Below, piece by piece: positions 7,323-46,401 of a DNA stretch of 64,000 nucleotides. The position numbers were made by a program, and so were the translations under genes. Source of the stretch: Gammaproteobacteria bacterium (GTDB lineage: Bacteria; Pseudomonadota; Gammaproteobacteria; Steroidobacterales; Rariloculaceae); the NCBI GenBank assembly GCA_036396795.1, contig DASWKF010000017.1:111191-175190 (forward strand), written 5' to 3'. Within the stretch, counting starts at the first letter, position 1, and the number at the start of each line of letters is the position of its first letter. The notes under the pieces were generated by a model, which was not told the origin of the DNA, ran no database searches, and saw only the letters and a list, made by a program, of their open reading frames with translations.

Positions 7323-8249
7323 ATGAAGGTGTTTTGCCTTCCCTGCAGCCCGAAGATCGCGGGCATCGCGGCTGCCGCCGTACTCCTATCGGCGCCGGCT
7401 GCCGGCCAGAGCCGGTCTGCGCAAGCGGATCCCGCCGCCGTTCCGACGCCGCGAACCGCGGATGGTAAGCTGGACCTGAACGGCCGGTGGGGAGGCAGCA
7501 GTGGTGGTGGCGTCGGCGTCAAGGTGGTGGAGCCAGATGGAACCGAGATGGATTTCGACACATTCGGAGACTATCAAGGCGCTCTGAGCGCCGGTCAGGT
7601 CAGCCCTTCTGCGCGGATTCTCGGCCGTCAGCCCAACTATCGGCATGGGAACAATGTGTACGCCGAACGCGACGGCGGGATGGACCAGCGATACTACGCA
7701 AACCCGCCGCTCTACAGGCCGGAGTTCTGGGAGCGTGTGCGGTATCTCGACGTGAACGGGAACGTCGAGGATACGACCTTCATATGCATGCCGGCCGGTG
7801 TGCCGCGCATGGGACCGCCCGTTCGAGTCATCCAGTCGGCGACGGACGTGGTCCTTCTATATGACCAACGGAATACCTGGCGTGTGATCCCAACTGATGG
7901 GCGACCCCACGACCCCGTGAACGCGGAAGACCAGACCTTCATGGGAGACTCGATCGGATACTGGGACGGAGATACATTGGTCATCGACGTGGTTGGGTTC
8001 AACGATCTCACCTGGCTCGGCTGGCCGGGGTGGTTCCACTCAAACGAGATGCGAGTGGAAGAACGCTTCACACGTGTCGGCAACACGCTTCACTACGATG
8101 TCACGGTGCATGATCCCTCGGTGCTGTTACAGCCGTGGGTAATGGATACGCGAGTGCTGCAGCTCAATGCGAGCTCGGCGACGTACCTCGAGGATCCGCC
8201 TTGTCTGGACTTCGACTCGACGCACATGGTGACCCGGGAGCGGGGATAG
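7323..8249 (+). CDS. Secreted protein homologous to the C-terminal domain of the long HH/NPH fusions
   Basis: AAGGAG RBS and a signal peptide. FICMPAGVPRM...RVIPTDGRPHDP...GDSIGYWDGDTLVIDVVGFND...PPCLDFD aligns with TCIGRPAP...RTIHMDGRDHPDG...GHSIGWWESETLVIDTTHFAD...FNCDPD of ORF 17669. Confidence 0.75.
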   Translation: MKVFCLPCSPKIAGIAAAAVLLSAPAAGQSRSAQADPAAVPTPRTADGKLDLNGRWGGSSGGGVGVKVVEPDGTEMDFDTFGDYQGALSAGQVSPSARILGRQPNYRHGNNVYAERDGGMDQRYYANPPLYRPEFWERVRYLDVNGNVEDTTFICMPAGVPRMGPPVRVIQSATDVVLLYDQRNTWRVIPTDGRPHDPVNAEDQTFMGDSIGYWDGDTLVIDVVGFNDLTWLGWPGWFHSNEMRVEERFTRVGNTLHYDVTVHDPSVLLQPWVMDTRVLQLNASSATYLEDPPCLDFDSTHMVTRERG

Positions 8250-10403: not shown

Positions 10404-11795
10404 CTACTCCGTCCATGCCGCGCGAACGGGCTGGCCGATCAGCACCGACGGGTCCGCTCCGGGCCGCGGCATGAACTTCTGTGGCCGCCCGCCCCAGACC
10501 TCGGCCGTGTACAGGTTGTTCTCCTGGTCGACGCTGAACTGATGCGTGCCCCAGAGGCCGCCCGGCGCGGGCGTCATCGTGCCCCAGGTCTGCAGCAGCC
10601 GGCCGGTCAGGTCGAACTCGTAGAACTTGAAGTTGCCGTGACCGTCGGACGCCCACAGGTGCTGGTCGGCCGTCATGTAGATGTGATACGTCGCTGCGGG
10701 CCCATCGCCGAGATACCACTCGCTCAGGAACTTGCCGTTCTCGTCGAAGACCTGGATGCGGCGGTTGCTGCGGTCGTTGACGTAGACGCGGCGCTGGTCG
10801 TCGATGGCAATGCCGTGAACAACGTTGAAGTAGCCGGGGCGCCGCTCCGTGCCGGCGTTGCCCATCTGGCCCCATGACATGAGGAAATTACCGTCCGTGT
10901 CGAACTTCATGACGCGGGTTTCCTCGTAGCCGTCCGAGACGAAGAAGCTGCCGTCGGGAAGCCAGGCGATGTCCGTCTGTCGGCCGAAGGTTTCGTCGGC
11001 CGGGCCGGTTTTCTGAGTCAGCGACGGCGTGCCGCGCCAGCCGGTCATTCTCGCGTTCTTCTCGGTCGTCGTGTCGTAGGTACCGATCGTCTGCAGCAGC
11101 TCCTTGCCGTCGTTGCTGAAGATCCGGATCACCTGGTGGCCGTCGTCGATTGCCCAGACGCGCTTCTCGGGGTCGTAGGGACTGATCAAGATTTTGTGAA
11201 CGCGGCCCTGGGAAAGCACCTTGGGGTCGGCCGGCTTGAACAGGGAGTCCCACTGTGTCCAGTCCTCGATCATGTTGCCGTCGCCGTCGAAAACCATGAT
11301 GACGTGGTGCCAGCGATAGTCGACGCCCTCTTCGCCCATGAACTGGTCCGTGGCTTCACCCGGGCTCGCGTAGGGGCCTACCGAGGCATTGCGCGCATAC
11401 ATTCCGACGCCGGGGACCTGCAGGCGCACCGTGCGGCCGTCATCGGTCTCGAGCTCGACGATCTGCGGGCTGAGATTCGATATATCGGGCAGCTCGCCAC
11501 GCATCGCCACGAAGATGCGGTCCGGGTTCTGTGCGAACACGCCCTGGACCGCGCCCCAGGTCCAGCCTTCGTGGCCGGGCAAATTCGACAGAGGCTTGGG
11601 CCAGTTCGGGTCGACCACGTAGGGTCCGTGAACGAGCTCGTCGCTGATGTTGTGCGGGTCGACCCACTGGCCCGGATGCTGCTGAGCGATGGCGATCAAT
11701 GCGCTCGCGTCCTGGGCAGAGCCCGTCGACGCCGTCCCCATGGCGACGCCCGATGCAGCGCATATGACGAAGACGATTCGACGGACGGTGCTCAT
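10404..11795 (-). CDS. Secreted NHL-repeat beta-propeller, peptidyl-alpha-hydroxyglycine alpha-amidating lyase (PAL)-like
   Basis: Start ATG 11795 with AAGAGGA RBS and a signal peptide. NHL-type repeats such as VHGIAIDDQRRVYVNDRSNRRIQVFDENGKFLSEW. Confidence 0.8.
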   Translation of the reverse strand: MSTVRRIVFVICAASGVAMGTASTGSAQDASALIAIAQQHPGQWVDPHNISDELVHGPYVVDPNWPKPLSNLPGHEGWTWGAVQGVFAQNPDRIFVAMRGELPDISNLSPQIVELETDDGRTVRLQVPGVGMYARNASVGPYASPGEATDQFMGEEGVDYRWHHVIMVFDGDGNMIEDWTQWDSLFKPADPKVLSQGRVHKILISPYDPEKRVWAIDDGHQVIRIFSNDGKELLQTIGTYDTTTEKNARMTGWRGTPSLTQKTGPADETFGRQTDIAWLPDGSFFVSDGYEETRVMKFDTDGNFLMSWGQMGNAGTERRPGYFNVVHGIAIDDQRRVYVNDRSNRRIQVFDENGKFLSEWYLGDGPAATYHIYMTADQHLWASDGHGNFKFYEFDLTGRLLQTWGTMTPAPGGLWGTHQFSVDQENNLYTAEVWGGRPQKFMPRPGADPSVLIGQPVRAAWTE

Positions 11796-12008
11796 GTTTT
11801 TTCCTCTTTTTGCTCGATTGTTTCGAGGATCAGGTGGTCCGGGCATTTTACACCTGCAGGCTCAATCGCAGCAGTGCCCCGTTAGCCCGGGCACCGCCCC
11901 AGGGCAGTCAAGGCCGAGCGTGGTCTGCGGCGCTCAATCGGAGTTAACATGGGGTGAAATGATCGACCCGGGAACCCGATGCGGGCCTGGGGCTGGGGGG
12001 AGAAGAAC

Positions 12009-13286
12009 ATGTTCCAGTTGTCGAGACGCCTTCTGATCACCATCCTGCTTTCCGGCGGTCTGCCGGCGTATGCGCAGAGCCAGTTGGCCGCGTTACCTGA
12101 CGGGCCGGGGAAGGAGCTGGTCGAAGCCGCCTGTGTGGCGTGCCATGAGACCGACGTGATCTTCAGCTCGACCGGATACACGCACGAGCAGTGGGGCCGC
12201 CTGATCAGCAAGATGATCGACCTGCCGGATTCACTGAAGGCGAGCATCACGCAATACCTGGCAACGAGCTTTCCGGAGAAATACGATCGCCGCCCGACCC
12301 TGGCACTCGGCAACGCCAAGATTACCTTCCTGGAGTGGACCGTTCCCACGCCTGGGCAGCGGCCGCGGGATCCGGTCATGACGCCGGACGGGATGATCTG
12401 GTGGGCGGGGATGTACGGCAGCTTGATCGGCCGACTCGATCCGAAGAGCGGCGAAATGACGGAGTGGAAGCTCGATCCGCAAGCCAGGCCGCACAGCATT
12501 ATCGACGACGCGCAGGGCAACATCTGGTACACGGGCAACGGCAACGGCACCGTGGGGATGCTCGACCCGGATACGGGTGAGATCACGGTCTACCCAATGC
12601 CCGATCCCGCCGCGCGCGACCCGCATACGCCCATCTTCAGCCGCAACGGCGATTACTGGTTCACCGTCCAGAACAGCAACATGCTCGGCCGCTTGGTCCC
12701 GGATACCGGCGACATCCGGCTGACTCATATGCCGACCGAGAACGCGCGGCCCTATGGCATCAAGGAAGATTCCACGGGCATGATCTGGATCGCCTACCGC
12801 GGCGCCGCGAAGATCGCGCGGGTCGATCCGGATTCGTGGGAAATCGAGGAATTCGAGACACCCGATCCGGATCCGCAATCACACCACGGCAACTACTACA
12901 TTCGCCGGCTCGCGATCGACAGCTACGACACGATTTGGTACGTGGATTCCGGACGCGGCTATCTGGGCCGTCTCGATCCGAGGACCGGCGAGATTGACGA
13001 GTGGCTGACCCCCAGCGGACCCGGCTCGCATCCTTACGCGATCGAGGTCGTCAACGACATCGTTTGGCTCAACGAGTCGGAACAGCGGCCCGACGTGCTG
13101 CTGCGGTTCGACCCGCAAACCGAGCGGTTCCAGAGCTGGCCCATCCCTTCCGGGGTGGGCATCATCCGCAACATGCGGGCGACGCATGAAGGCAACCTGG
13201 TGATTCACCAGAGCAGCAGCAATACCGTAGGCCTCGTCCTTATCGACCGCGAGAGCTCGTGGGTCCCGGGGCCGTATCGGCCCTGA
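12009..13286 (+). CDS. Secreted cytochrome c domain fused to a Vgb/streptogramin-lyase-like beta-propeller
   Basis: Start ATG 12009 after GGGGGAGAAG, with a signal peptide. One CVACH heme-binding motif, then repeated ...G.IW....G...G.LDP.TGE... blades. Confidence 0.8.
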   Translation: MFQLSRRLLITILLSGGLPAYAQSQLAALPDGPGKELVEAACVACHETDVIFSSTGYTHEQWGRLISKMIDLPDSLKASITQYLATSFPEKYDRRPTLALGNAKITFLEWTVPTPGQRPRDPVMTPDGMIWWAGMYGSLIGRLDPKSGEMTEWKLDPQARPHSIIDDAQGNIWYTGNGNGTVGMLDPDTGEITVYPMPDPAARDPHTPIFSRNGDYWFTVQNSNMLGRLVPDTGDIRLTHMPTENARPYGIKEDSTGMIWIAYRGAAKIARVDPDSWEIEEFETPDPDPQSHHGNYYIRRLAIDSYDTIWYVDSGRGYLGRLDPRTGEIDEWLTPSGPGSHPYAIEVVNDIVWLNESEQRPDVLLRFDPQTERFQSWPIPSGVGIIRNMRATHEGNLVIHQSSSNTVGLVLIDRESSWVPGPYRP

Positions 13287-13320
13287 TAGGTCGCGATGTA
13301 CTAGACCTCGAGAAGAACTA

Positions 13321-14388
13321 ATGAAGGTCGAAAAAGAGACTCTGGTCGCAGAGATCGTCAGCGCAGCGATGCTCCTCGTCTGCTTGTCGCTGTTACCCGC
13401 CGCGACGAGCGCGCACCACTCCAGAGTGGAGTACACCGACGGCGCGATGCACGAGATCGAGGGCGAGGTGGTCAGAGTCGTGTGGAGAAATCCGCACATC
13501 ATGATCACCGTCAGAGCCGTGACGGCCGAGGGAACGGCGGAGGATTGGGTACTGGAAGGCCCCGGGGCGGGGACCGTGCGGCAGGAGGGTCTGATCGACG
13601 GCTATGTTTCGCAAGGCGATCGGGTGAAGGCCTCAGGCCAACGATCCGACCGCCGCGAGCATTGGCTCAGGCTTGCGAACGTGCTCGCCCCGAGCGGAAC
13701 CGAGCTGGTCTTCACCAGCGCGGGGCCGCGATGGTCGTCCGACTTCATCGGCGGCAGCCGAGAGGCGGAGGCCGAGGCCGCCGAGGATGAAACGCCGCCC
13801 GAAGGAATCTTTCGCGTCTGGGTGTGGACGGGCGGCACGCCGTACGAGGTGACGGAAGAGCCCCCGCTGACGCCCGAGGCGATGGCCGCCTACCAAAGCT
13901 ACGATCCGCTCCGGGACGACCCCGTTCTCGAGTGCGAGCTTCCCGGGATGCCGCGGGTCATGACGATTGCAGGCGCTCGTCCGTTCGAGCTCGAGCGGCG
14001 CGGTGAGGATATTCTGATTGTTTCCCAAAACTTCAATCAGACTCGAGTGATCCACCTGAGCAACGGAGCCGTGCCGAGCGACACGGAGGCGACCTCACTG
14101 GGGTATTCACGGGGCCGCTGGGAGGGAGAGACTCTGGTTGTCTCGACGACCCGGATCAGCTACCCGTTCTTCGATATACCGCCGTGGTGGGGTATTCCGC
14201 AGACGGAGGCGATCGAAATCGTCGAGCGCTTTACTCCCGACGGGGACAGGCTCGTGTATGACTTCTGGGCGTATGACCCAACGACATTCACGGCACCGAT
14301 CGACAAGCCCGGTTTCCTGATGTGGACTTGGCAACCGGGGCTGGAGGTCGAGGCGGATCGCTGCGAACCCTATTTCGAGGATCCTTAA
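13321..14388 (+). CDS. Long HH/NPH fusion protein (DUF6152-like N-domain + conserved C-domain), paralog 2 of 6
   Basis: 355 aa. ...PAATSA then HHSRVEY...WRNPH. The C-domain reads ECELPGMPRV...GYSRGRWEGETLVVSTT...DRCEPY. Confidence 0.8.
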   Translation: MKVEKETLVAEIVSAAMLLVCLSLLPAATSAHHSRVEYTDGAMHEIEGEVVRVVWRNPHIMITVRAVTAEGTAEDWVLEGPGAGTVRQEGLIDGYVSQGDRVKASGQRSDRREHWLRLANVLAPSGTELVFTSAGPRWSSDFIGGSREAEAEAAEDETPPEGIFRVWVWTGGTPYEVTEEPPLTPEAMAAYQSYDPLRDDPVLECELPGMPRVMTIAGARPFELERRGEDILIVSQNFNQTRVIHLSNGAVPSDTEATSLGYSRGRWEGETLVVSTTRISYPFFDIPPWWGIPQTEAIEIVERFTPDGDRLVYDFWAYDPTTFTAPIDKPGFLMWTWQPGLEVEADRCEPYFEDP

Positions 14389-14441
14389 GACAGGGCTTTC
14401 ATCCCAGCAGCGGTAAGAATGAGCGTCGCAACGGAGGCGAG

Positions 14442-15446
14442 ATGAGCTGGATTCGTGTTGGTTTCCTGCTCGGGGGCTGGTTCGGAGCCTCATGGGCGGG
14501 AGCACACCATGCGGCTACGGGGCTTTACGACGGGAGCAGCATCGGAGAGGTGGAGGGAGAGATCACTTCTATCTTTTGGCGTAACCCTCATGTGCGGCTT
14601 CGGATCGAGCGCGATGGCGAGGCGGGCCCGGAGGAGTGGGCGGTGGAGTTCGGTTCCGTGAACACGCTGGAGCGCATCGGGGTCAGCTCGGACATGGTGC
14701 AAGTAGGCGATCGCGTAAAGGTCTCCGGAAGGCTGGGGCGAGACGGCTTGAAGGCTCTGTTCGCGGATTCAGTCACGCTGTCCGATGGTAGGGAGCTGCC
14801 ACTGAATGCCAGCGTCCGAAGCCGTTATGGTGTGACGGAGAGGGCCATACGCGATGCGCTGGATACCGATCCCGATCTGCGGGCCGACATCTTTCGAGTC
14901 TGGCTTCCGAACGAGCGTCCGAACACGGGAGCGGGCACCACGCGGTATCCGCTGACGGAGGCGGGCCGCGCCGCGCAAGCGGCATGGAACCCGGCGGACG
15001 ACCCGGCGTTGAGGTGCATACCGCCCGGATTACCGACGGCGATGGACAACCCGTATCCGATTCAATTTCGCGATCAAGGCGACACCATCATCCTGCTCCT
15101 CGAGGAATGGGATGGGGTCCGCGCCATTCACATGAACGGCGTCAGGTCCCCGGAGCAGACCGACTCGCGCATGGGGCATTCCGTCGGGCGCTGGGACGCC
15201 AACACGTTGATCGTCGAGACAACCGACATCGGCTGGCGCTATATCGATGATCTCGGCACGCCGCAAAGTGAGGATGCGGTAATCGTTGAGCGTTTCGCCC
15301 TCGATGCGGACGGAACTCGCTTGGCTTGGGAAGCCCGGATCACGGACGCCGTGAATTTCACAGAGCCCGTGGTCATGGAGGGCGAGTGGATTTGGCTCCC
15401 AGGCCATGAGATCAAGCCCTTCAATTGCACGCTGTCCGCCGAGTGA
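14442..15446 (+). CDS. Long HH/NPH fusion protein, paralog 3 of 6
   Basis: ORF 14322-15446 trimmed to ATG 14442 (GGAGG at 14433-14437). ...ASWAGA then HHAATGLYD...WRNPH. The C-domain reads RCIPPGLPTA...GHSVGRWDANTLIVETT...FNCTL. Confidence 0.8.
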   Translation: MSWIRVGFLLGGWFGASWAGAHHAATGLYDGSSIGEVEGEITSIFWRNPHVRLRIERDGEAGPEEWAVEFGSVNTLERIGVSSDMVQVGDRVKVSGRLGRDGLKALFADSVTLSDGRELPLNASVRSRYGVTERAIRDALDTDPDLRADIFRVWLPNERPNTGAGTTRYPLTEAGRAAQAAWNPADDPALRCIPPGLPTAMDNPYPIQFRDQGDTIILLLEEWDGVRAIHMNGVRSPEQTDSRMGHSVGRWDANTLIVETTDIGWRYIDDLGTPQSEDAVIVERFALDADGTRLAWEARITDAVNFTEPVVMEGEWIWLPGHEIKPFNCTLSAE

Positions 15447-15568
15447 TGGCGTTGCGCGCTTGCTGCTCGCGAAGTGTACGAGTTCGCTTTCATCATCCAG
15501 CCGTTGAAGATTCAGGGAGCGACCGGGTCGACAGTCGCACCCGCCGCAATTTACTGAGGAGAATCCCA

Positions 15569-16540
15569 ATGCGAAATGCCCTATTTGTTGCGGGCCTGGC
15601 CGCGGCGCTCGCGTTGACGCCGATCGTTCACGCCGATGAGGGCCTCGTCGTGGGCACGGAAGCTATCGCAGGCAGCGATATACCGGCGGCCTACCATCTG
15701 GTCCCGACCGTCGACGGGCTGTTCACGGCGATCGGGTTGCGCAAGCCCAGCGGCGATGGGCCGTTTCCGATCGTGTTGTTTGCCTCCGGGAACGGCGGCG
15801 AAGGGCTCGATTGGGTAAAAAATGCGAGCCATAACATGAGCTGGACTCAGGAGCAGTTTCTCGATGCAGGCTACGCCGTGGCCTGGATGCGCTATCGAGC
15901 CGAAGTCGACGTGCCGGAGTACGACGGCAAAGCGCTCGACGATCGCGCCTGGTCGGGACGGCCGCGCTTGAGCCGCGCACCGTTCGAGTACGAGGACGTC
16001 ATCGGCATTTTCGAGTACGTGAAAACGCTTCCCGAGATTCAGGCGGACCGTGTCGCGTACATGGGCATGAGCCATGGCGGCGAGATGCTCATGAAAATCG
16101 CGTCGGTGTATGACGGCTTGCGCGCGGGCATTGCGAGTGAGCCCGCGTCGGCGGGTTTCCTCGCGCGCGGCCCGGCAGATCCGAACGCACCGGAACGCCC
16201 CGAGACCGCGGAGGTCTACACGGCAGACATGCAGGCGCAGGCCGTGCGCGAGCTGCACGCGCGCATCGATCGCAACGTCGCCATGCAGCGCATTGCGCCG
16301 ATCGATATTCCGATTTTCGTGCAGGGGCGGGACCGGGATCACAACCAGGATACGTTTCGGGTCAACTACGAGCTGCTGCAGGAAGCCGGCAAGGAGGTCG
16401 AGTGGAAGACCTACGACCACGACGAGCACGGCTTCGTCTACGTCAAGCGCAATACGGATGGCCGTTACGAGCCGAATGCGGTGCAGCGCGAGGCCGTCGC
16501 GGACTCGATCGCTTTCTTCGATCGGCACATGAAGCGTTGA
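15569..16540 (+). CDS. Secreted alpha/beta hydrolase (dienelactone hydrolase / S9 peptidase-like)
   Basis: ORF trimmed to ATG 15569 (GAGGAG upstream). Signal peptide LAAALALTPIVHA and a GMSHGG nucleophile elbow. Confidence 0.8.
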   Translation: MRNALFVAGLAAALALTPIVHADEGLVVGTEAIAGSDIPAAYHLVPTVDGLFTAIGLRKPSGDGPFPIVLFASGNGGEGLDWVKNASHNMSWTQEQFLDAGYAVAWMRYRAEVDVPEYDGKALDDRAWSGRPRLSRAPFEYEDVIGIFEYVKTLPEIQADRVAYMGMSHGGEMLMKIASVYDGLRAGIASEPASAGFLARGPADPNAPERPETAEVYTADMQAQAVRELHARIDRNVAMQRIAPIDIPIFVQGRDRDHNQDTFRVNYELLQEAGKEVEWKTYDHDEHGFVYVKRNTDGRYEPNAVQREAVADSIAFFDRHMKR

Positions 16541-16620
16541 TCGACGGACGGGGTCGACGTGAGTGTCTTGGCCGTATTCCTTGCCGGAGCGCCGGTTCCA
16601 ACGAAAATAGGGAACAACTG

Positions 16621-17607
16621 ATGAACAAATTTCGCCTCTCGACGTTTGCCGTCTCACTGAGCTTCTCGCTGTCCGTTGCTGCGCCGCTGCAGGCTCAGCA
16701 GCCGCAGAACTACGAAATCACGCAGGTCGCGGACGGTCTCTATCGTGCGGCCACCAGCTCCCACCGCACGGTGTTTCTCGTGACCGAGGAGGGAATCATC
16801 CTGGCGGATCCCATTCACACGGACTTTTCCACTTGGCTGAAGTCCGAGCTGCAGCAGCGCTTCGGTGTCCCGGTCAGACACGTGCTATACAGCCACCATC
16901 ACTGGGATCATGCCTCGGGCGGCGCGGTCTTCGCGGACACGGCGACCTTCGTTGCGCACGAGGACATGGCGGCCGCGCTCGCGGCACCGCTGCCGAGCAA
17001 CGCGACGGTTCTCGATGCGAGCGGCAACGGGGTTCTGGAGCGGGGCGAGGCGAGCGGCGGTTTCGCCGAGAACTTCGACCGGCTGGATACCGATCAGGAC
17101 GGCGGCCTCAGTGGAGCGGAGATCAATGTCGATATCCATCCTCCGGAGCTGCTCTATTCCGACCGCATGACGGTAAGCTTGGGCGGTGAGCGCGTCGAGC
17201 TCATACATCCCGAGCCGGCGCATTCGAGCGATACGACCATTCTGTATTTCCCCGAGCAACGCGCAGGCTTTGCGGTCGATTACATAAACGTCAGGCGTTT
17301 ACCGGGATCCTTCGATCCGTACCCGTTCGACCAGTACGTCAGCGCCGTCGCCACGATGTTTGCGCTCGATATCGATATCGTCGTACCGGGCCATGGGAAC
17401 GTCGGGCAGCGGGAGGACCTCGCCGAATACATGGGCTTCCTGCGAGATCTCCAGACGGAAGTCGCCGCCGCGATCGCGGATGGACAGACGCTGCAACAGG
17501 CTCAGCAATCCGTGGAGCTTGCGGAATATTCGGGCTGGCTGCTTTTCGACGAGCGCAAGGCCAATGTCGTCGCCGGCGCCTATGCCATCTTGAGCGGCAC
17601 GCGCTGA
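16621..17607 (+). CDS. Secreted MBL-fold metallo-hydrolase carrying an inserted EF-hand pair
   Basis: ORF trimmed to ATG 16621. Signal peptide SLSVAAPLQA. HHHWDH zinc motif. Two canonical 12-residue Ca-binding loops, DASGNGVLERGE and DTDQDGGLSGAE (nt 17014-17121). Confidence 0.85.
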   Translation: MNKFRLSTFAVSLSFSLSVAAPLQAQQPQNYEITQVADGLYRAATSSHRTVFLVTEEGIILADPIHTDFSTWLKSELQQRFGVPVRHVLYSHHHWDHASGGAVFADTATFVAHEDMAAALAAPLPSNATVLDASGNGVLERGEASGGFAENFDRLDTDQDGGLSGAEINVDIHPPELLYSDRMTVSLGGERVELIHPEPAHSSDTTILYFPEQRAGFAVDYINVRRLPGSFDPYPFDQYVSAVATMFALDIDIVVPGHGNVGQREDLAEYMGFLRDLQTEVAAAIADGQTLQQAQQSVELAEYSGWLLFDERKANVVAGAYAILSGTR

Positions 17608-17668
17608 GTCCATTGAGCGATATCTATGTAGAATAGCGAACACAGCTCAAGGTTCGGGGGGTGCAATC

Positions 17669-18676
17669 TTGAGAACGCTCACACGTCTTGCGGCGGCTTG
17701 CTTGGCCGCCACGCCCGTCTGGGGCCACCACAGCGACGCCGGCCTGGACGTCAACTCGATCCTGGCTTTCGAGGGGACGGTCACCGAGTTCGCGTTTCGC
17801 AATCCTCACGTCTACGTCGGTGTCGAGACTGCGGGCCCGAGCGGCGAGCCGGTGACCTGGGCGCTGCAAATGGGTACGGCCAACAATCTCAATCGACAAG
17901 GCTGGGTGCGGGACACGCTCAAGCCCGGCGACCAAGTCGCGGTCCGCGTGCATCCTGCGACGGACGGGCGACCCTACGGCGTGGTGACATCCATCGACAA
18001 GCAAGGCGGGCTGGGTCTGGCGCCGGTCTCCGACGAGCCGCAAGCGCCGGCCCGCGCAACGACCCTGGCGGGCAAATGGCGCGCGGACGTTTCCAAGCTC
18101 GTCGAATACCCGGGCGGTTTCGACGGGTTTTTTCACGCTGAGCTCGAGCTGACCGAGCGGGGCGCCGCCGCCCAGGCCCTATACGACCCGCTTTCCGCGG
18201 AGAACCCCGAGTCGACGTGCATCGGACGACCGGCACCGGCGGCGTTGGTGTCGAGCCGCCTCTATCTGCTCGAGTTCGAGCTCAACGAGGACACCGTCGT
18301 CATCCGAACCGAATATTTCGACGAGGAACGAACGATCCATATGGACGGCCGCGACCATCCGGACGGCAGCGGCCGTTTCGCCAGCGGGCATTCGATCGGC
18401 TGGTGGGAGAGCGAGACGCTCGTGATCGATACCACCCACTTCGCCGATCATCGCTCGCCGTACCAGATCGGTGTGCCCTCAGGACCGCGGAAGCACGTCG
18501 TCGAGCGATACCGACTGATCGAGAACGGCACGAGAATGCTGGCCGAGTTCGTCCTCGAAGATCCGGAATACATTGCCGAGCCCTTGACCCATCAAAGGGA
18601 GCTGATCTACTTGCCCCACGAAACCATGTATCGCTTCAACTGTGACCCGGATTCGACCAGCCGTTTCGTGCGCTGA
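17669..18676 (+). CDS. Long HH/NPH fusion protein, paralog 4 of 6
   Basis: 335 aa, TTG start after a GGGGGG run. ...ATPVWG then HHSDAGLD...FRNPH. The C-domain reads TCIGRPAP...GHSIGWWESETLVIDTT...FNCDPD. Confidence 0.8.
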   Translation: MRTLTRLAAACLAATPVWGHHSDAGLDVNSILAFEGTVTEFAFRNPHVYVGVETAGPSGEPVTWALQMGTANNLNRQGWVRDTLKPGDQVAVRVHPATDGRPYGVVTSIDKQGGLGLAPVSDEPQAPARATTLAGKWRADVSKLVEYPGGFDGFFHAELELTERGAAAQALYDPLSAENPESTCIGRPAPAALVSSRLYLLEFELNEDTVVIRTEYFDEERTIHMDGRDHPDGSGRFASGHSIGWWESETLVIDTTHFADHRSPYQIGVPSGPRKHVVERYRLIENGTRMLAEFVLEDPEYIAEPLTHQRELIYLPHETMYRFNCDPDSTSRFVR

Positions 18677-18691
18677 TCTGAGGTAGTGCCG

Positions 18692-19456
18692 ATGGCGAGA
18701 CCCTTCATCCTCGCGGCCGCGCTGATGCTTGCCGCCGCGACTTCCTCCGCGGCGCTCGCGCAGCAAGCCGCCGCCGACCGCTCGATGTCGTTTTTCGTGA
18801 CCAGCCGGCCCATCGGTGACGGCGGCAATCTCGGCGGGCTTGCCGGCGCGGATGCGCATTGCCAGGCGCTCGCGACCGCGGTCGGTGCCGGCCACAGGAC
18901 CTGGCACGCTTACTTGAGCACGCAGGCCCGCCCCGGTCGACCGGCCGTGAACGCGCGCGACCGCATCGGCACCGGGCCCTGGTACAACGTACGAGGCGAG
19001 ATGATCGCCCGCGACGTCGCGCATCTGCACGGCGACACCCTCGAGCTCGCGCGGCTCGGCAACAACTTGACGAAGCAGTCGGCGCTCACCGAGAAGGGGC
19101 AGATCGTGCCGGGCCTGGAGGATTTTCCGGATCCCCGAGACAACGACTGGGACTACGTCAAGACTACGCCGAATTCCAATCGCCACGAGATCTTGACGGG
19201 CACGCAGCCCGACGGCCGGGCGTATCCCTCGGACCTCGATTACACCTGCGACAATTGGACGAGCAACGAGGACCCGGAAGGGCAGGCGTCCCTGGGAGCG
19301 GCTCCGGCCAAGCCCAACGCGCAGATCGGCTTCACCGACCGCAACGGCGGCGGCAACGGTTCTTGGAACTCCTCGCATGGCACGCGCGGCTGTAGTCAAT
19401 ATGCGCTGCCGAGAACACACGGCATCGGCATGCTCTACTGCTTTGCGGTGAATTGA
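18692..19456 (+). CDS. Secreted endostatin-like / C-type-lectin-fold protein (DUF1554-like), tandem copy 1
   Basis: Signal peptide [41 protein letters not shown] matches collagen XVIII endostatin [29 protein letters not shown]. Four Cys lie in equivalent positions (HC, TCDNW, GCSQ, YCF). The start could also be GTG 18686. Confidence 0.75.
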   Translation: [254 protein letters not shown]

Positions 19457-19463
19457 GGCGCGC

Positions 19464-20147
19464 ATGACGAGAACGACATCGTTGCTGACGGCCGCCGCGC
19501 TTCTCACGCTCAGCAGCGTTTTTACGGCGATCGCACAACAGCGAGCGCAGGCGCCGATGACGTTCTTCGTTACCAGCGAGCCGATCGGCGACGGCGGCAA
19601 TCTCGGCGGGCTCGAAGGCGCCGATGCGCATTGCCAGGCGCTCGCGACCGCCGCCGGCGCGGGCGATCATACCTGGCGCGCGTATCTGAGCACGCAGGCG
19701 CGCCCCGGGATGCCCGCGGTGAATGCCCGCGACCGCATCGGCGACGGCCCGTGGTACGCTGCCGTGCGCAGGCTCGACCGTCCGATCATCAAGTCCGAGC
19801 TTCACGGCGACACGCTCATCGAAGCGCAGCGCGGCAGCAACATGTTCAAGCGGTACACGCTCACCGAGAAGGGCGAGCTCGTCAACGGTATCGGCGATCC
19901 GCTGCCGATGCGCCACGATATCCTCACCGGCTCGCAGACGGACGGGCGCGCCTTCACCGCCGCCGCCGACCATACATGCAACAACTGGACCAGCAACGCC
20001 GAAGGCTCGGCGCAGGTCGGCCATTCCGATCGCATCGGCAACGGCAACACCTCGTGGAATTCCTCGCACGCGACCGACGGCTGCGGTCAGGCGGACCTCG
20101 AGGGCTGGGGCGGCGTCGGCTTGTTCTATTGCTTCGCCGTGGATTGA
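19464..20147 (+). CDS. Secreted endostatin-like / C-type-lectin-fold protein, tandem copy 2
   Basis: 227 aa paralog of the upstream gene. It shares a 29-nt identical stretch (18851-18879 = 19623-19651) and the four Cys. Confidence 0.75.
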   Translation: [227 protein letters not shown]

Positions 20148-20169
20148 TCCCGCCGCGCCCTCTTCAAGC

Positions 20170-20970
20170 TCAGCGCAGATAGTCGGGCTTGATGTCCTCG
20201 AACAGATCGTCACGCACCTCGGCCGGGCGAGTGCGGCCCCGGCAGTACACGCCGGCGCTCGTTAAACGATACATGTTGCCCAGCGTGCTCGCCGGGTGAT
20301 GGTCAGCCGTGTAACAACTGCCGGCGAACGACAGCCCCCCCTCGGCCTGGGGTGTCGTCGCGAGCGGCACCTCGCGGCTCGGCGGCGGCCGGCCGGTAGG
20401 CACGCTCGGCACGCTCGAGCTCGACTCCGGCAGGGTTTGCGGATACGCGGGATAGCCGAAGCCGCGGTAACGGCGCTCGCGCTCGGTTTCCTGCCGGAGG
20501 TAGACCACCGCCTCGGGAATGCGCGCGCCCCAATCGACGTCGGGCGCCGGCGCCTCGTCCTCGGCCGCCGAGACCTCGTCGTCGTCAGCCGGCAGCTCGG
20601 CGCCCTCCGGGCCGCTCTCGGTTTCCGGCGGCGTTGCCGCCGCGACGGCCGGCTCGGCCTCGCCGGCGTCGGACGGTGGTGCCGGCGCCAGGGCGGGCTC
20701 GACGGCCGGCTCGAAAGCCGGCTCGATGGGCGGCCAAGGCTCCCGGAGCACGAAGGCTTCTAACGGTCGCATCGGCAGGTCCGGCGGTCGGCTCCATTCG
20801 GTCTGCATCACGACGAGCACGACCAGCGCGTGCAGCCCGGCGGATCCGGCGACGGCGGCAATTCGCGCGTCCCGGGCACCGGGCACGGGCTTGTCTAAGA
20901 TGGCCTGCAGCCGAGCTCTCCCCCGACGGCGATTTCCGGCGAATGCGCATCCGATCATAGCGGCATTCAT
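20170..20970 (-). CDS. Hypothetical single-pass membrane protein with Pro/Glu-rich spacer
   Basis: C-terminal 266 codons of the 616-aa ORF 20170-22020, the part not antisense to gene 21088-22107. One hydrophobic helix (IAAVAGSAGLHALVVLVVM), then PIEPAFEPAVEPALAPAPP and an acidic stretch. No clear RBS, so start and reality are uncertain. Confidence 0.4.
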   Translation of the reverse strand: MNAAMIGCAFAGNRRRGRARLQAILDKPVPGARDARIAAVAGSAGLHALVVLVVMQTEWSRPPDLPMRPLEAFVLREPWPPIEPAFEPAVEPALAPAPPSDAGEAEPAVAAATPPETESGPEGAELPADDDEVSAAEDEAPAPDVDWGARIPEAVVYLRQETERERRYRGFGYPAYPQTLPESSSSVPSVPTGRPPPSREVPLATTPQAEGGLSFAGSCYTADHHPASTLGNMYRLTSAGVYCRGRTRPAEVRDDLFEDIKPDYLR

Positions 20971-21087
20971 TACAGGGGATACGCCGCGGAGCCCGAGGGT
21001 CGCGGCAGGCCCCGGAGCAGCTGCGAGACGCGTCGATCGCGCTAGAATCCGCGTAAAATCTGCAGACGGGCTCAGAGAGGGGGACCC

Positions 21088-22107
21088 ATGAGGAATCAGG
21101 CAGCCTTCGCCGCGGCGTCTTTCACGCTCGCCTGCGCGGCTTTCGGTCATCACAGCGACGTCGGCCTGCAGATGGATGCGGTGACGACCTTCGAGGGGAT
21201 CGTCACCGAATACACGCTGCGCAATCCTCACAGCTATTTCACCGTCGCAACCACGGACGAAAACGCCGAATCGGTCACCTGGACCGTGCAAATGGGCTCG
21301 GCGATCTCGGTTTCGCGCAGAGGATGGACGCGCGACACGCTTGCACTCAACGACCGGGTGATCGTCGGCGTGCATGCGGCGCGCGACGGGCGGCCGTACG
21401 GGCTGCTCGCAACGCTCGAGAAGGAAGGTGTGCCTATCTCCTATGCGCGGTTGCCGAACCCGGTGACGGTGAGCACGACGAGCCTCGAAGGCCGGTGGAT
21501 CATCGATCGGGCGAGCCTCCCCGAGGACTACCCCGGAGGCCTCGACCAGCTCACGCTTCAAGATCTTGCCTTGACCGAGAAAGGCCGGGCCGCGCTGGCG
21601 GCGTTCAGTCAGAACTCCGAGGAGAATCCGGAGCTCGCCTGCATATCGAAGCCGACGCCGGGAGGAATCGTCTATACGGACATTTACCCGATCGAGATCG
21701 AGTTCGTGCAGGGCAACGAGATCATCATGATCCGCAGCCAGTACTTCGATCAGGAGCGCACCGTGTACATGGACGGTCGACCGCATCCCGACCTCGACCA
21801 GCGTTGGCACGAAGGCCATTCGATCGGCTGGTGGGAAGGCGAGGTGCTGATCGTGGATACGCGGAATTTTGCGGACAACCGATCGCCCTACCAGAACGGC
21901 ATTCCCTCGGGGGCGCAAAAGCACGTCGTCGAGCGTTACGAGCTGCAGCCGAGCGGCACACACATGACGGTCGAGTTCACGCTCGAGGATCCTGAATATC
22001 TCGTCGGATCGATGACTCACAGGAGAGACTTGGTCTATTCGCCGCAGCTGGAGATGACGCCATTCAATTGCGATCTCGAAGCGACGCGACGCTACCTGCC
22101 TCGATAG
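21088..22107 (+). CDS. Long HH/NPH fusion protein, paralog 5 of 6
   Basis: 339 aa, RBS GAGGGGGA. ...ACAAFG then HHSDVGLQ...LRNPH. Roughly half the residues are identical to ORF 17669 by eye. FNCDLE lies near the C-terminus. Confidence 0.8.
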   Translation: MRNQAAFAAASFTLACAAFGHHSDVGLQMDAVTTFEGIVTEYTLRNPHSYFTVATTDENAESVTWTVQMGSAISVSRRGWTRDTLALNDRVIVGVHAARDGRPYGLLATLEKEGVPISYARLPNPVTVSTTSLEGRWIIDRASLPEDYPGGLDQLTLQDLALTEKGRAALAAFSQNSEENPELACISKPTPGGIVYTDIYPIEIEFVQGNEIIMIRSQYFDQERTVYMDGRPHPDLDQRWHEGHSIGWWEGEVLIVDTRNFADNRSPYQNGIPSGAQKHVVERYELQPSGTHMTVEFTLEDPEYLVGSMTHRRDLVYSPQLEMTPFNCDLEATRRYLPR

Positions 22108-22132
22108 CGGCCCATCCAGACGGCTGTGCGTA

Positions 22133-23038
22133 ATGCGTTACCGGTACTTCATCTGTGACGTCTTCACGGATCGGCCTTTCTGCGGCAATCAGTTGGCCGT
22201 GTTGCCCGAAGCCGAAGGTCTCAGCGATCTCCAGATGCAGCAGATTGCGCGCGAATTCAATTTCTCCGAGACGACCTTCGTCTTCCCGGCCGAGGCGGGC
22301 CATACGCGCAAGGTACGAATATTCACGCCGACGAAAGAGCTGCCGTTCGCGGGCCATCCCAACCTCGGCACGGCCCACGTGCTCGCGGTCGACGGCGCTT
22401 TCGGCGCTTTCGAGGCAATGAAGACCGTAACTTTCGAAGAGGGCGCCGGACCGGTGCGTATCTCGATCCACCGGCGCGAGGACGAGCGGTTATGGTGCGA
22501 GCTGGAGGCGCCGCAAGGCCTGACGCTCGGCGGCCCTATCTCCCCGCAGAGGATGGCGTCGATTCTTGCCCTGGAGCCGGGAGACATCGTCACGGACGTG
22601 CATCTCCCCATGGTTGCCTCCGTAGGCCTGCCGTTCTTGGTCGCCGAGATCAAAGACAGAAGCGCTCTGGCGCGAGCTCGGGTCGACCTGACCGAGCTCG
22701 GCAAGCTCGCGGCGGAAGGAATCTGCCACGATCTTCACATCTACGTGCGCAGCGAACACGAGTTTGATATTCGGGCTCGCATGTTCGCGCCGCTCGACGG
22801 CGTGCCCGAAGATCCGGCGACCGGCAGCGCGAATTGCGCTCTGGCGGGGTTGCTGAGCGCGTTTCAGCCTGAGGAACACGGGAATTTCAGTTGGCGCATC
22901 GCTCAAGGCATGGAAATGGGCAGGCCGAGCATTCTGGACGCGCGCACGGAGAAACGAAACGGGTCCGTTGCCAGATGCTGGATCGGCGGCGTAAGCGTCC
23001 TTGTCAGCGAAGGAACAATCACTGCCGTTCCGCCCTAA
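22133..23038 (+). CDS. PhzF-family isomerase/epimerase-like protein
   Basis: 301 aa. The N-terminus MRYRYFICDVFTDRPFCGNQLAVL...FNFSETTFV is typical of the PhzF family. Confidence 0.85.
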   Translation: MRYRYFICDVFTDRPFCGNQLAVLPEAEGLSDLQMQQIAREFNFSETTFVFPAEAGHTRKVRIFTPTKELPFAGHPNLGTAHVLAVDGAFGAFEAMKTVTFEEGAGPVRISIHRREDERLWCELEAPQGLTLGGPISPQRMASILALEPGDIVTDVHLPMVASVGLPFLVAEIKDRSALARARVDLTELGKLAAEGICHDLHIYVRSEHEFDIRARMFAPLDGVPEDPATGSANCALAGLLSAFQPEEHGNFSWRIAQGMEMGRPSILDARTEKRNGSVARCWIGGVSVLVSEGTITAVPP

Positions 23039-23113
23039 AATGCGTTAGATTTGCTCCAGGCGGCGGAGACGACCCGAGGTTCTTTGCAGCTTCACCAATT
23101 CAGGAGCCCTTCT

Positions 23114-23533
23114 GTGTTCCACAAGCCCAGAGACACATCAGTGGGGAATTCCGTTCTTGCGACGAAAGTCCGATTCGCCGCGAGCGCACTATCCTCGGAT
23201 GAGGATCTCACCATCGAGGGCATCGTCGAGGGCAGCATCGCCAATCGGAGTCACCAGGTGACCATCGGCAGAAGCGGCCGGGTAAAGGCCGACGTGCATG
23301 CGAGAATCATCGTCGTGGAGGGGACCATCGAGGGAGATTTGTTGGGCGAGGAAGCCGTGCACATGCGGCGCACCGCGCGAGTCGTCGGCAATGTGACCTC
23401 GCCTCGGATCACGCTCGAGGACGGCGCGACGGTGAAAGGCAACATCAGGACCTCCGGGCGGTCGCCTGCCGCGCCACGTGCCGCGGCGGAGCAAGCCCCG
23501 CCGCCGCCCGCCGGGAGCATGCGAGCTCAATAG
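23114..23533 (+). CDS. Bactofilin (polymer-forming cytoskeletal protein)
   Basis: Repetitive beta-helix pattern IEGIVEGSI...VKADVHARIIVVEGTIEGDLLG...VVGNVTSPRITLEDGATVKGNI. GTG 23114 is preferred because AGGAG lies at 23102-23106. Confidence 0.75.
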   Translation: MFHKPRDTSVGNSVLATKVRFAASALSSDEDLTIEGIVEGSIANRSHQVTIGRSGRVKADVHARIIVVEGTIEGDLLGEEAVHMRRTARVVGNVTSPRITLEDGATVKGNIRTSGRSPAAPRAAAEQAPPPPAGSMRAQ

Positions 23534-23534
23534 G

Positions 23535-24659
23535 ATGCGCCGCGCCATCCCCATGTTGCTGGCCGTCGGGCTCGTCGCCCCGGTGCACTACGCGTGGGCA
23601 CAGGGTCCGGAGAGCCTGCGGATCTATGTCATCGACGTCGAAGGCGGCGGCGCAACCTTGTTCGTTCCGCCATCGGGCGAGTCGCTGCTCATTGATACCG
23701 GTAACGGCGGCGACGCGGCCGCACGGGACGCGGGCCGGATCATGGAGGCGATCGAAGACGCCGGCCTCGACCGCCTCGACCACGTGATCATCACTCACTA
23801 TCACGGCGATCACATCGGCGGTCTGGCCGAGCTGGCCACGCGGATCCCGATCGGCCACTTCATCGATCATGGGCCGAACGTTCAGCCCGAGGGATCGGGC
23901 GCGGCCCACCTGCCGCGCTACGAGGAGCTATCCCGGCAGGCGCAGCACACTGTTGTCAAGTCCGGGGATCGCATTCCCGTATCGGGGCTCTATATCCGTG
24001 TCGTCGCCTCCGCCGGGCAGGTGATCGCGACGGCGCTGCCGGGCGCCGGCGAATCCAATCCGCATTGCGCGAATGTCGACCCTATCGCGCCCGATCTCAC
24101 GGAGAACGCGCAGTCCGTAGCGGTATCCATCGAGTTCGGACGCTTCCGCGTAGCGCACCTGGGCGATCTGACGTGGAACGGCGAGCTCGAGCTGATGTGC
24201 CCTGAGAACAAGTTCGGCACGGCCGATCTCTTCATTGTGTCGCACCATGCACAGCAGCGCCCGGCCTCGATGTCGAACTCCAGACCGCTGGTGCATGGCT
24301 TGGGTCCGCGGGTGGCGATCTCGAGCAACGGCATCCGCAAGGGCGCGCAGGTCGCTGCGATGCAGATCCTCTTTACCTCGCCGGGTCTCGAGGACCTGTG
24401 GCAGCTGCACTTCTCCGAGTTCAGTGGGCAGGAATACACGGTGCCGGGATTGTTCATCGCCAATCGATACGACGGCGAGACCTACATCCCGGTCGCACCC
24501 ACGGCCGCGCAATCGCCGACGCCCTCGGATCCGCCGATCCCGCCGCACGACGGGCCGGCGTTTTATTTCAAGGTCACGGCGCAAGAAGATGGGACGTTCA
24601 CCGTGACGAATACACGGAACGGGTTCTCGAAGACCTACGAGGCGGTATCGGGAGGCTGA
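23535..24659 (+). CDS. Secreted MBL-fold metallo-hydrolase (ComEC-type lactamase_B domain)
   Basis: ORF trimmed to ATG 23535. Signal peptide LLAVGLVAPVHYAWAQ. HYHGDH motif and a Pro-rich C-terminal extension. Confidence 0.8.
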   Translation: MRRAIPMLLAVGLVAPVHYAWAQGPESLRIYVIDVEGGGATLFVPPSGESLLIDTGNGGDAAARDAGRIMEAIEDAGLDRLDHVIITHYHGDHIGGLAELATRIPIGHFIDHGPNVQPEGSGAAHLPRYEELSRQAQHTVVKSGDRIPVSGLYIRVVASAGQVIATALPGAGESNPHCANVDPIAPDLTENAQSVAVSIEFGRFRVAHLGDLTWNGELELMCPENKFGTADLFIVSHHAQQRPASMSNSRPLVHGLGPRVAISSNGIRKGAQVAAMQILFTSPGLEDLWQLHFSEFSGQEYTVPGLFIANRYDGETYIPVAPTAAQSPTPSDPPIPPHDGPAFYFKVTAQEDGTFTVTNTRNGFSKTYEAVSGG

Positions 24660-24756
24660 TCAGAAACGCTTGAAAGGAGATTGACACGGCGTCGATCGCT
24701 CACCGACAGTGGCGTTCGTTGGGGAGGCCACGTCGGAAGTTGAACAGGGGGGACTC

Positions 24757-25809
24757 ATGAAACGACATCTTCGGATGATAACTCTGGGCCTGGCCGGCAT
24801 TGCCGTCTCAGGCGGTGGCGCGGGCGCGCAAACGCCTCAGCAACACGGCGCGGACTGGCCCGACTGGGCTTACGGTTATCTGGCTCCGCTTTCCGAGGGC
24901 GATCTAGTCGCGCCTCCCTGTCCGCTGACGGCCAATCCGCTCGACTGCCGACACGCCAGCGAGCCGGATACGGACGACGGCAACAAGCGCAGCTTGCCCG
25001 ACACGACCCTGTCCTTTACGGAGTATGAGGCGAACTTCGGTTACGGCCCCGCGGACTGGTTCCCGGGGGACCACCCGCCGATGCCCGACATCGTGGCGCA
25101 CGGTAAGCAAAGCGCCGGGGTGCGTGCCTGCTCGCTGTGTCACTACCCCAACGGCCAGGGCAAGATGGAGAACGCGCATGTCGCAGGTCTCCCCAAGGCC
25201 TACATCCTCCAGCAGCTCGAAGCGTTTGAGAAAGGTGACCGCCACAACGCGGATCCGCGCAAGGCGAACACCAACGAGATGGCGAGAATGCCCAGAGGGA
25301 TGACCGACGCCGAGAAGGAGCAGGCTGCCGAATACTTCTCCTCGATGCCGTTTCGCCCGTGGGTTCGCGTCGTCGAAGCCGACGAAGTGCCGACGGTGCG
25401 CGTCACCGAGGGCGGGCTCATGATACCGATCGAGGGTGCGCTGCCGATGCCGATCGGCCGGCGCATCATCGAGGTGCCCGAGCACGCGGAGCGGATGGAG
25501 ATCATGCGCGATCCGAGATCGGGATTTATCACCTATGTGCCGGTCGGCAGCCTGGCTGCGGGTGAGGCGCTCGTGACCACCGGCGCCGGCAAGACGATAC
25601 AGTGCAGCCTGTGCCACGGCCCGGGGCAAAAAGGCCTCGGCGACATTCCCGGCATCGCGGGTCGGACCGCGAGCTACACGATGCGGCAGCTGTGGGACTT
25701 CAAGCAGGGCGCGCGCAAGAGCCCGGGGGCGATGCAGCCCGTGGTGCAGAATCTGAGCTCCGAGGATCTGCTCAACATCGTGGCCTATTTGGCCTCGCTC
25801 GAGCCCTGA
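24757..25809 (+). CDS. Periplasmic di-heme c-type cytochrome
   Basis: ORF trimmed to ATG 24757 (GGGGGGA upstream) with a signal peptide. Two CXXCH motifs (CSLCH at two positions). Confidence 0.8.
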   Translation: MKRHLRMITLGLAGIAVSGGGAGAQTPQQHGADWPDWAYGYLAPLSEGDLVAPPCPLTANPLDCRHASEPDTDDGNKRSLPDTTLSFTEYEANFGYGPADWFPGDHPPMPDIVAHGKQSAGVRACSLCHYPNGQGKMENAHVAGLPKAYILQQLEAFEKGDRHNADPRKANTNEMARMPRGMTDAEKEQAAEYFSSMPFRPWVRVVEADEVPTVRVTEGGLMIPIEGALPMPIGRRIIEVPEHAERMEIMRDPRSGFITYVPVGSLAAGEALVTTGAGKTIQCSLCHGPGQKGLGDIPGIAGRTASYTMRQLWDFKQGARKSPGAMQPVVQNLSSEDLLNIVAYLASLEP

Positions 25810-46243: not shown

Positions 46244-46401
46244 CCCATCATGGGTATCCAGTGTCGGTGGTAGAGAAAGTATGCCAGTTGTCCCGGATCG
46301 CCCCTGTGATCCAGGACGCTTTTCCAGCGCAATTTCAAGGATTCTCGAGCCGCGACCGCCGCCTCGGCGATGTGCTCGGCGGGCGATGCTATGCTTGCCC
46401 G

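Follow-up and report, generated by a model that had tools for sequence, protein, structure and literature searches.

Bacterial proteins resembling endostatin, the C-terminal domain of collagens XVIII and XV, have been known since 2007, when an endostatin-like fold was predicted for the Len proteins (LenA to LenF) of Leptospira (PMC2063517, PMC2387172). DUF1554, the Pfam family to which the Len proteins belong, has been linked to the endostatin entry 1koe of the PDB (PMC2387172). Len proteins bind laminin, fibronectin, and factor H, which provides a precedent for a binding role within the family (PMC2063517). In the literature that we searched, DUF1554 was mentioned only in work on Leptospira and in unrelated fungal work, and no tested member of the family was found apart from the Leptospira Len proteins. 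In this study, we analyzed two adjacent genes, termed ORF1 and ORF2 (open reading frames 1 and 2), in a stretch of 64,000 nucleotides (nt) on contig DASWKF010000017.1 of an uncultured, metagenome-only gammaproteobacterium; this whole stretch is referred to as the window. An earlier note on the same DNA had described the two genes as a tandem pair of secreted bacterial endostatin-like proteins with a C-type-lectin fold.

The window pair is a correct identification of uncharacterized members of a known family and in this respect is mostly ordinary. Endostatin-like (DUF1554) proteins of bacteria have been recognized since the Len work, and the exact window sequences are already deposited under the name "lectin." Three aspects are new. 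A confident structural model connects the endostatin fold with a large environmental branch of the family, which comprises more than 3,500 clusters at 50% identity, whereas the earlier link consisted of weak profile matches. Part of the family forms an anciently paired unit of an upstream (U-type) and a downstream (D-type) protein with fixed differences, which argues for a two-component function. Furthermore, domain fusions and the gene neighborhood connect the domain with secreted hydrolases as well as with the uncharacterized family DUF6152, an entry point for experiments on two families without known function.

Endostatin fold of the window pair

Both genes were present where the earlier note had placed them. 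The start codon of ORF1 was set to the ATG at 18692, in agreement with the gene calls of four public assemblies of the same organism; the GTG at 18686 represents an alternative start that would extend the protein to 256 amino acids (aa). The two genes are separated by 7 nt, and their products share 54% identity (E = 4e-80, BLASTP). Exact matches to both were found in GenBank (HEX9875570.1 for ORF1 and HEX9875571.1 for ORF2), titled "MAG TPA: lectin [Gammaproteobacteria bacterium]," and relatives at 66 to 91% identity are titled "lectin" or "hypothetical protein." The name "lectin" on the window proteins is an automatic annotation. Entries from metagenome-assembled genomes (MAGs) named "lectin" or "DUF1554 domain-containing protein" belong to the same family as the window pair and do not differ from it.

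To obtain a structural model of ORF2, AlphaFold was supplied with an alignment of 136 diverse family members (A2), which had been seeded from a 40%-identical myxobacterial-type relative. The resulting model reached a pLDDT of 90.8 and a pTM of 0.85. It replaced a model from a shallow run with 48 relatives of at least 60% identity, which was discarded at a pLDDT of 48.5. Foldseek comparison of the A2-based model with the PDB yielded five significant entries, all of them endostatin domains of collagens XVIII and XV (1bnl, 1dy0, 1dy1, 1koe, and 1dy2), with E values from 3e-7 to 1.8e-4, a probability of 1.00, and target TM-scores of 0.59 to 0.69. The alignments comprised 207 to 211 columns and covered the full span of the targets at 15 to 17% identity. 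The next match had an E value of 3.2.

Sequence profiles pointed in the same direction. Searched against PDB sequences, the A2 profile retrieved endostatin chains only, the best with an E value of 9.4e-6 over residues 15 to 138 of the 172-residue chain 1koe_A. A local hhalign comparison of the family with endostatin gave a probability of 84.6% and an E value of 6.9e-6, its alignment ending at query residue 180 and endostatin residue 143. Over residues 14 to 154, the mouse endostatin sequence used for hhalign agreed with the PDB alignments obtained. In the global hhalign alignment, which had a probability of 31.6%, the C-terminal cysteines were misplaced, and the local alignment was used instead. 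In a single-sequence search of the PDB, endostatins were the only near-significant sequences (E of about 0.02). The predicted structure and the profiles confirmed that the window proteins share the endostatin fold. The comparison that the earlier note had proposed, by profile and structure against the PDB and Pfam, thus returned a significant endostatin match, and its description of a tandem, secreted, endostatin-fold, DUF1554-related pair held in the profile, AlphaFold, and Foldseek results alike.

The window pair belongs to DUF1554 (PF07588). With a gathering score of 27.5, ORF1 fell just short at 24.9 bits (E = 2e-5) and ORF2 lay above it at 28.5 bits (E = 1.5e-6). The window proteins cover only positions 5 to 47 of the 136-position model, whereas relatives cover positions 5 to 129, which places the pair in a divergent branch of the family. 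DUF1554 was matched by 121 of the 136 aligned relatives at an E value of 1e-3 or lower. For the Pfam family Endostatin (PF06482), both window proteins missed the gathering score of 29.4, with 14.5 bits (E = 0.03) for ORF1 and 16.2 bits (E = 0.009) for ORF2; 34 of the 136 relatives matched it at the same E value threshold, the best at 1e-6. The family is large: more than 8,000 clusters were scored at 90% identity, and 3,533 representatives at 50% identity had an E value of 1e-3 or lower.

The part of the earlier description that invoked a C-type-lectin fold stands only by way of the published classification of endostatin. Endostatin is said to be distantly related to the C-type lectin domain, as Hohenester et al. 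reportedly proposed in 1998. No canonical C-type lectin was among the Foldseek PDB matches of the ORF2 model, neither protein had a match to Pfam Lectin_C, and the EPN/QPD calcium and sugar motif of C-type lectins is absent from the window proteins, which sets them apart from canonical members of that class.

The motif matches to endostatin that had been listed in the earlier note were reproduced by HMMER and HH-suite. The segment GGLxGADxxCQ...W/F-RAYLS of the window pair aligned with endostatin, and HDILTGS..DGR...TCxNWTS aligned with endostatin KSVWHGSDPxGRRL..SYCETWRT. Altogether, the window proteins and the endostatins of collagens XVIII and XV share G-x-x-GAD-x-x-C, [WF]-RA-[YF]-LS, DR-x-G-x-x-P, G-S-x-x-x-G-R, and C-x-x-W. 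One of the listed matches, GQASLG with GQASSL, did not withstand the comparison and is probably coincidental, as GQASLG sits in an insertion of ORF1 that is missing from ORF2; the next strand has a family-wide counterpart, which reads AQIGF in ORF1 and AQVGH in ORF2. The proposed equivalence of LYCFA with VLCIE near the C terminus was supported by the full-length Foldseek alignment but not by the sequence methods, the local hhalign alignment stopping earlier.

Like endostatin, each window protein has exactly four cysteines, and these are invariant in all 136 members of A2 as well as in 98 of 98 family members collected for the gene tree described below. The earlier note had proposed counterparts for all four cysteines of endostatin. 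Cys57 aligned with endostatin Cys33 and Cys172 with Cys135 by profile and local hhalign, whereas the third and fourth were positioned by the Foldseek span only. Because of this invariance and the alignment of the first two cysteines, endostatin-type disulfides are plausible, and two nested bonds, Cys57-Cys223 and Cys172-Cys207 (ORF2 numbering), are likely. They would stabilize the domain outside the cytoplasm.

In other respects, the window proteins depart from endostatin. They are stand-alone proteins with their own leaders, whereas endostatin is the C terminus of a collagen, and they exceed endostatin by approximately 30 to 60 residues, with additional loops and one short helix between cysteines three and four. 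In their mature form, both are acidic, with isoelectric points (pI) of 6.05 for ORF1 and 5.42 for ORF2, compared to 9.3 computed for endostatin. Their mature N termini contain no histidines and thus lack the N-terminal histidine cluster of endostatin. Given the acidic character and the missing N-terminal histidines, heparin or zinc binding of the endostatin type would not be expected.

An AxA-type leader is visible in both sequences, and cleavage is predicted before a QQ pair. Neither signal peptide contains or is closely followed by a lipobox cysteine; cysteines begin only at residue 57. In ORF1, the conserved domain starts at the motif SFFVTS, and the leaderless domains of two fusion proteins (P0164 and P0186, described below) begin at the same motif. 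In the ORF2 model, residues 3 to 25 form a lower-confidence helix apart from the domain. Taken together, the window proteins are Sec-exported, nonlipoprotein products with one endostatin-fold domain each.

One ancient duplication behind the U/D pair

The earlier note had considered the two genes to be recent duplicates on account of a 29-nt identical block. The block is exact at both positions given (18851 to 18879 and 19623 to 19651), cannot be extended, and encodes DAHCQALAT, including the first invariant cysteine. It is part of a 203-nt stretch over which ORF1 and ORF2 are 82% identical, and a run of this length has a probability of 0.004 under independent codon choice. If the duplication were recent and the copies functionally redundant, the block could be read as its remnant. 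Both window copies, moreover, read ALAT at its end, whereas the corresponding copies in another organism (L006, a 515-kb contig on which both genes occur in the order seen in the window) read ALAA and TLAE, as would be seen after gene conversion of a short patch.

Comparison between organisms speaks strongly against this explanation. The upstream gene product of L006 is 83% identical to ORF1 and 48% identical to ORF2, and its downstream product (P0008) is 80% identical to ORF2; orthologs are thus 80 to 84% identical, compared to 54 to 60% for the paralogs of the window. Where residues agree, the codons were also identical in a fraction of 0.59 between the window paralogs and of 0.53 to 0.61 in cross-species and cross-paralog comparisons, with 0.55 to 0.61 for the cross-species ones. 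As the paralogs do not exceed the cross-species values, synonymous sites appear to be saturated. In the same 192-nt conserved region, other old U/D pairs show a nucleotide identity of 0.71 to 0.84 and exact runs of 25 to 28 nt. The 29-nt run reflects extreme protein conservation combined with GC-rich codon bias, and a short local gene-conversion patch in the window pair is at most possible from the sequence.

A neighbor-joining tree was computed from 98 family genes, taken from the window, L005, L006, and 80 GTDB species loci. The 16 U-type and 18 D-type copies formed two separate clades with matching internal branching. Tandem pairs were present at 15 of the 80 GTDB species loci, in MAGs named Acidobacteriota, Terriglobia, Rariloculaceae, other Gammaproteobacteria, Rhodospirillaceae, another alphaproteobacterium, and a "Bordetella" bin, with a U-D spacing of 1 to 17 nt in most pairs. 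Ortholog identities above those of paralogs, the U and D clades, saturated synonymous sites, and long exact runs in old pairs together refute the claim of recent duplication, and a recent origin of redundant copies has to be regarded as extremely improbable. The pair goes back to one ancient duplication, and U and D have been coinherited in Gamma-, Alpha-, and Betaproteobacteria and in Acidobacteriota.

The two types are distinguished by fixed residues. Position 187 is occupied by F, M, or L in 16 of 16 U-type proteins and by histidine in all 82 others. D152 and G216, which are invariant elsewhere, are replaced by E and H, respectively, in every U-type protein (16/16 each). ORF1 carries F187, E152, and H216 and lies directly upstream of the D-type gene on the same strand. 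Lone D-type genes were found at three loci (L005, L010, and L017), and a lone U-type gene was found at L066 only. Fixed differences combined with such a distribution of lone genes are the pattern of two nonredundant partners. We also observed that one Rhodospirillaceae MAG, Ww272, carries two U/D pairs on separate contigs (L012, JAHEEM010000118.1, and L014, JAHEEM010000151.1), the second of which is followed directly downstream by a DUF6152 gene.

Domain fusions, DUF6152 neighbors, and a proposed binding role

Domain architectures were surveyed among the family representatives at 50% identity. The endostatin-like domain was found joined to a GH5 cellulase (P0269 and P0257), to an S8 subtilase (P0129), and to a FlgD_ig (FlgD Ig-like) domain (P0352), and it follows a dienelactone-hydrolase-type (DLH) esterase in P0167; the same esterase family is represented in the gene row of the window. 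Three proteins (P0162, P0146, and P0138) contain two copies each. Three matched stretches of the domain occur in two giant proteins, P0143 (6,506 aa) and P0135 (6,876 aa), which presumably are surface adhesin-like. In two further proteins, P0164 (618 aa) and P0186 (541 aa), a leaderless endostatin-like domain comes directly after a DUF6152 two-domain protein of full length. Residues 2 to 341 of P0164 aligned with residues 11 to 326 of the protein encoded at 17669-18676 (E = 2e-22), and residues 353 to 536 aligned with ORF1 at 49% identity, so that the domain order of both fusions equals the order of the adjacent window genes at 17669-18676 and 18692-19456. At the C terminus of P0164, a Pro/Gly-rich linker is followed by the hydrophobic segment GGGFSWLWGLLGALVLGGIGFMAIRKTD, which looks like a membrane or sorting anchor.

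DUF6152 also recurs next to stand-alone family members. Homologs were detected within 8 kb at 10 of 19 U/D-clade loci. Outside these clades, 6 of 64 loci had one at this distance (Fisher p = 1.5e-4, in a comparison confined to the loci collected), and DUF6152 directly adjoins an endostatin-like gene in L011, L014, L066, and the window. The pair had been placed in the earlier note between two "HH/NPH" fusions, C and D. Both are DUF6152 proteins, but a minus-strand gene also intervenes between the pair and fusion D. The DUF6152 proteins share the invariant residues H20 and H21 right after the predicted leader, R44-N45-P46-H47 (RNPH), and two invariant cysteines, and the N-terminal His-His suggests a metal site. 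No sequence relative of the DUF6152 protein was found in the PDB, nor was there any mention of it in the literature searched.

The best explanation of these observations, to which we assign a probability of roughly 0.55, is that the conserved, secreted, endostatin-fold U/D pair is a binding or targeting module serving its extracytoplasmic neighbors. Because the domain is joined to secreted enzymes that are unrelated in their chemistry and occurs in multiple copies in single proteins, it would be a noncatalytic module of the lectin or carbohydrate-binding-module (CBM) kind. Like CBMs and C-type lectin domains, it is a small extracellular domain, likely disulfide bonded, that is found alone, in tandem, or on a GH5 enzyme, a protease, or an esterase. 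To our knowledge, the endostatin-like domain is not among the CBM families of CAZy. The stand-alone pair would serve neighboring extracytoplasmic proteins, above all those of DUF6152, and would tether them to a polymeric substrate or an envelope component. Since U and D have stayed paired and U differs by fixed substitutions at positions 187, 152, and 216, the two would be expected to act as a heterodimer or to contribute two nonredundant binding specificities instead of being spare copies. The ligand would not be heparin-like, given that the mature proteins are acidic.

Several observations weigh against this assignment. Ten polar residues of the domain, H56, H114, E135, H151, D152, H187, D189, W198, N199, and H202, are invariant or nearly so in the 136 diverse members, and such conservation across phyla is seen more typically at a catalytic or metal site than in a lectin whose specificity varies. 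The association with DUF6152 is not fixed either: the pair in L006 is without DUF6152 genes, and the lone D-type gene in L005 lies beside a GSDH-type dehydrogenase. When GSDH was checked as a recurrent neighbor across the loci, it was found in L005 only. DUF6152 may be expanded in the genomes in which it appeared enriched near the pair, and the two DUF6152 fusions, P0164 and P0186, may stem from a single fusion event.

The conserved polar residues form the core of the main rival to a binding module, namely, that the invariant histidines, acidic residues, and the Trp-Asn form a metal-binding or catalytic site, which may act on DUF6152 proteins or deliver metal to them. The histidine at position 187 in all non-U members fits this view, as do the invariant H20, H21, and RNPH residues of the DUF6152 partners and the zinc binding of mammalian endostatin, for which the title of PDB entry 1bnl names zinc-dependent dimers. 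However, the enzymes to which the domain is fused (GH5, S8, and DLH) are complete in themselves, which is the pattern of an accessory module. No enzyme that has the endostatin fold is known to us. The zinc ligands of endostatin, His1, His3, His11, and Asp76, include N-terminal histidines that have no counterpart in the mature N terminus of the window proteins. On balance, we consider a metal-binding or catalytic role unlikely. Somewhat more doubtful is a more specific proposal, in which the U/D pair would be the targeting part of an undescribed extracytoplasmic DUF6152 system and would dock it, along with other secreted enzymes, onto a polymer; here, the N-terminal His-His and the RNPH motif suggest an exposed N-terminal metal center, and the parts of the system would be those that are fused in some lineages.

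The common Pfam family raises the question of whether the window proteins, like the Len proteins, act as host-matrix adhesins that attach to laminin, fibronectin, or complement regulators on an animal host. Both groups are extracytoplasmic and have expanded by gene and domain duplication, Len proteins do bind these ligands (PMC2063517), and the window proteins gave weak N-terminal matches to the NCBIfam models for LenA/B (NF047482) and LenF (NF047483), with E values of 5.8e-7 and 3.5e-4, respectively. These matches reached only 16 to 29 bits, compared to cutoffs of 300 and 400 bits, and were confined to the N-terminal part, so that the pair does not fall within either Len family. Len proteins are outer-membrane lipoproteins of a pathogen, whereas the window proteins, having no lipobox, have no lipid anchor. 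Binding of Len proteins to laminin is ionic and competed by heparin (PMC2063517), in contrast to what would be expected of acidic proteins. Finally, the MAGs of relatives are named Acidobacteriota, Vicinamibacterales, Bryobacterales, Methylococcaceae, Cellvibrio, and others, several of them labeled as groundwater; these are free-living taxa and not animal pathogens. A role as Len-like adhesins is therefore very improbable, and a binding or targeting module that serves extracytoplasmic partners is preferred.

Gene neighborhood in the window

The features discussed are listed in Table 1. As the window also encodes DnaB, RNase R, and an ABC-F protein, it is considered to be chromosomal. Scanning the region from 11.5 to 22.5 kb for promoters and terminators yielded fewer sites than were found in shuffled sequence; therefore, no operon boundaries were drawn.

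Table 1. Coordinates of the endostatin-like pair and of neighboring features in the window
Feature	Position	Strand	Size or detail	Basis
U-type (upstream, ORF1) endostatin-like/DUF1554 protein	18692-19456	+	254 aa	ORF, gene calls, exact GenBank match
Predicted Sec signal peptide, U-type	18692-18760	+	23 residues, cleavage before QQ	Read from sequence
D-type (downstream, ORF2) endostatin-like/DUF1554 protein	19464-20147	+	227 aa	ORF, exact GenBank match
Predicted Sec signal peptide, D-type	19464-19535	+	24 residues, cleavage before QQ	Read from sequence
DUF6152 two-domain protein (fusion C)	17669-18676	+	Public call starts at 17702	Pfam DUF6152, E = 1.5e-24
DUF6152 two-domain protein (fusion D)	21088-22107	+	48% identical to the 17669-18676 protein	Pfam DUF6152, E = 1e-18
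Dienelactone-hydrolase/S9-type alpha/beta hydrolase	15569-16540	+		Pfam Peptidase_S9, Abhydrolase_3, DLH; gene call
Convergent gene, Pro/Ala/Glu-rich, Cys-containing C-terminal region	20170-20958	-	262 aa	Gene call; no Pfam match

The convergent minus-strand gene downstream of the pair had tblastn matches only in L001 to L004, which represent the same organism, and it is probably not part of the endostatin-like unit. Three long minus-strand ORFs (18479-19600, 19332-20213, and 20170-22020) were rejected as genes, since both the public gene calls and conservation follow the plus strand. They comprise 293 to 616 codons, overlap real genes, and were taken to be shadow ORFs of the high-GC sequence (65% GC). 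Of their sequence, the public calls include only the last 262 codons of the third ORF.

Four paralogous DUF6152 two-domain proteins are encoded on the plus strand of the window, at 13321-14388 and 14442-15446 in addition to the two listed in Table 1. A fifth paralog at 7323-8249 (+) had no Pfam match and consists of the DUF6152 C-terminal domain only. Around the pair, genes for apparently exported proteins form a long row on the same strand, from 11979 to 25809. Besides the DUF6152 proteins and the DLH/S9 hydrolase, it includes a Vgb-lyase-like beta-propeller protein, a bactofilin, metallo-beta-lactamase-fold proteins at 16621-17607 and 23478-24659, a PhzF-like protein at 22133-23038, and a di-haem-type cytochrome c at 24709-25809.

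An NHL-repeat beta-propeller protein at 10404-11846 (-) recurs near endostatin-like genes elsewhere, with relatives in L006 (84% identity), L013 (44% identity, E = 1e-107), L079, and L085. It should be kept in mind that NHL proteins are common, which calls for caution as to the weight of this recurrence. Farther away and unrelated to the pair, a Ser/Thr protein kinase with an N-terminal CHASE2 sensor domain is encoded at 44132-46489 (-).

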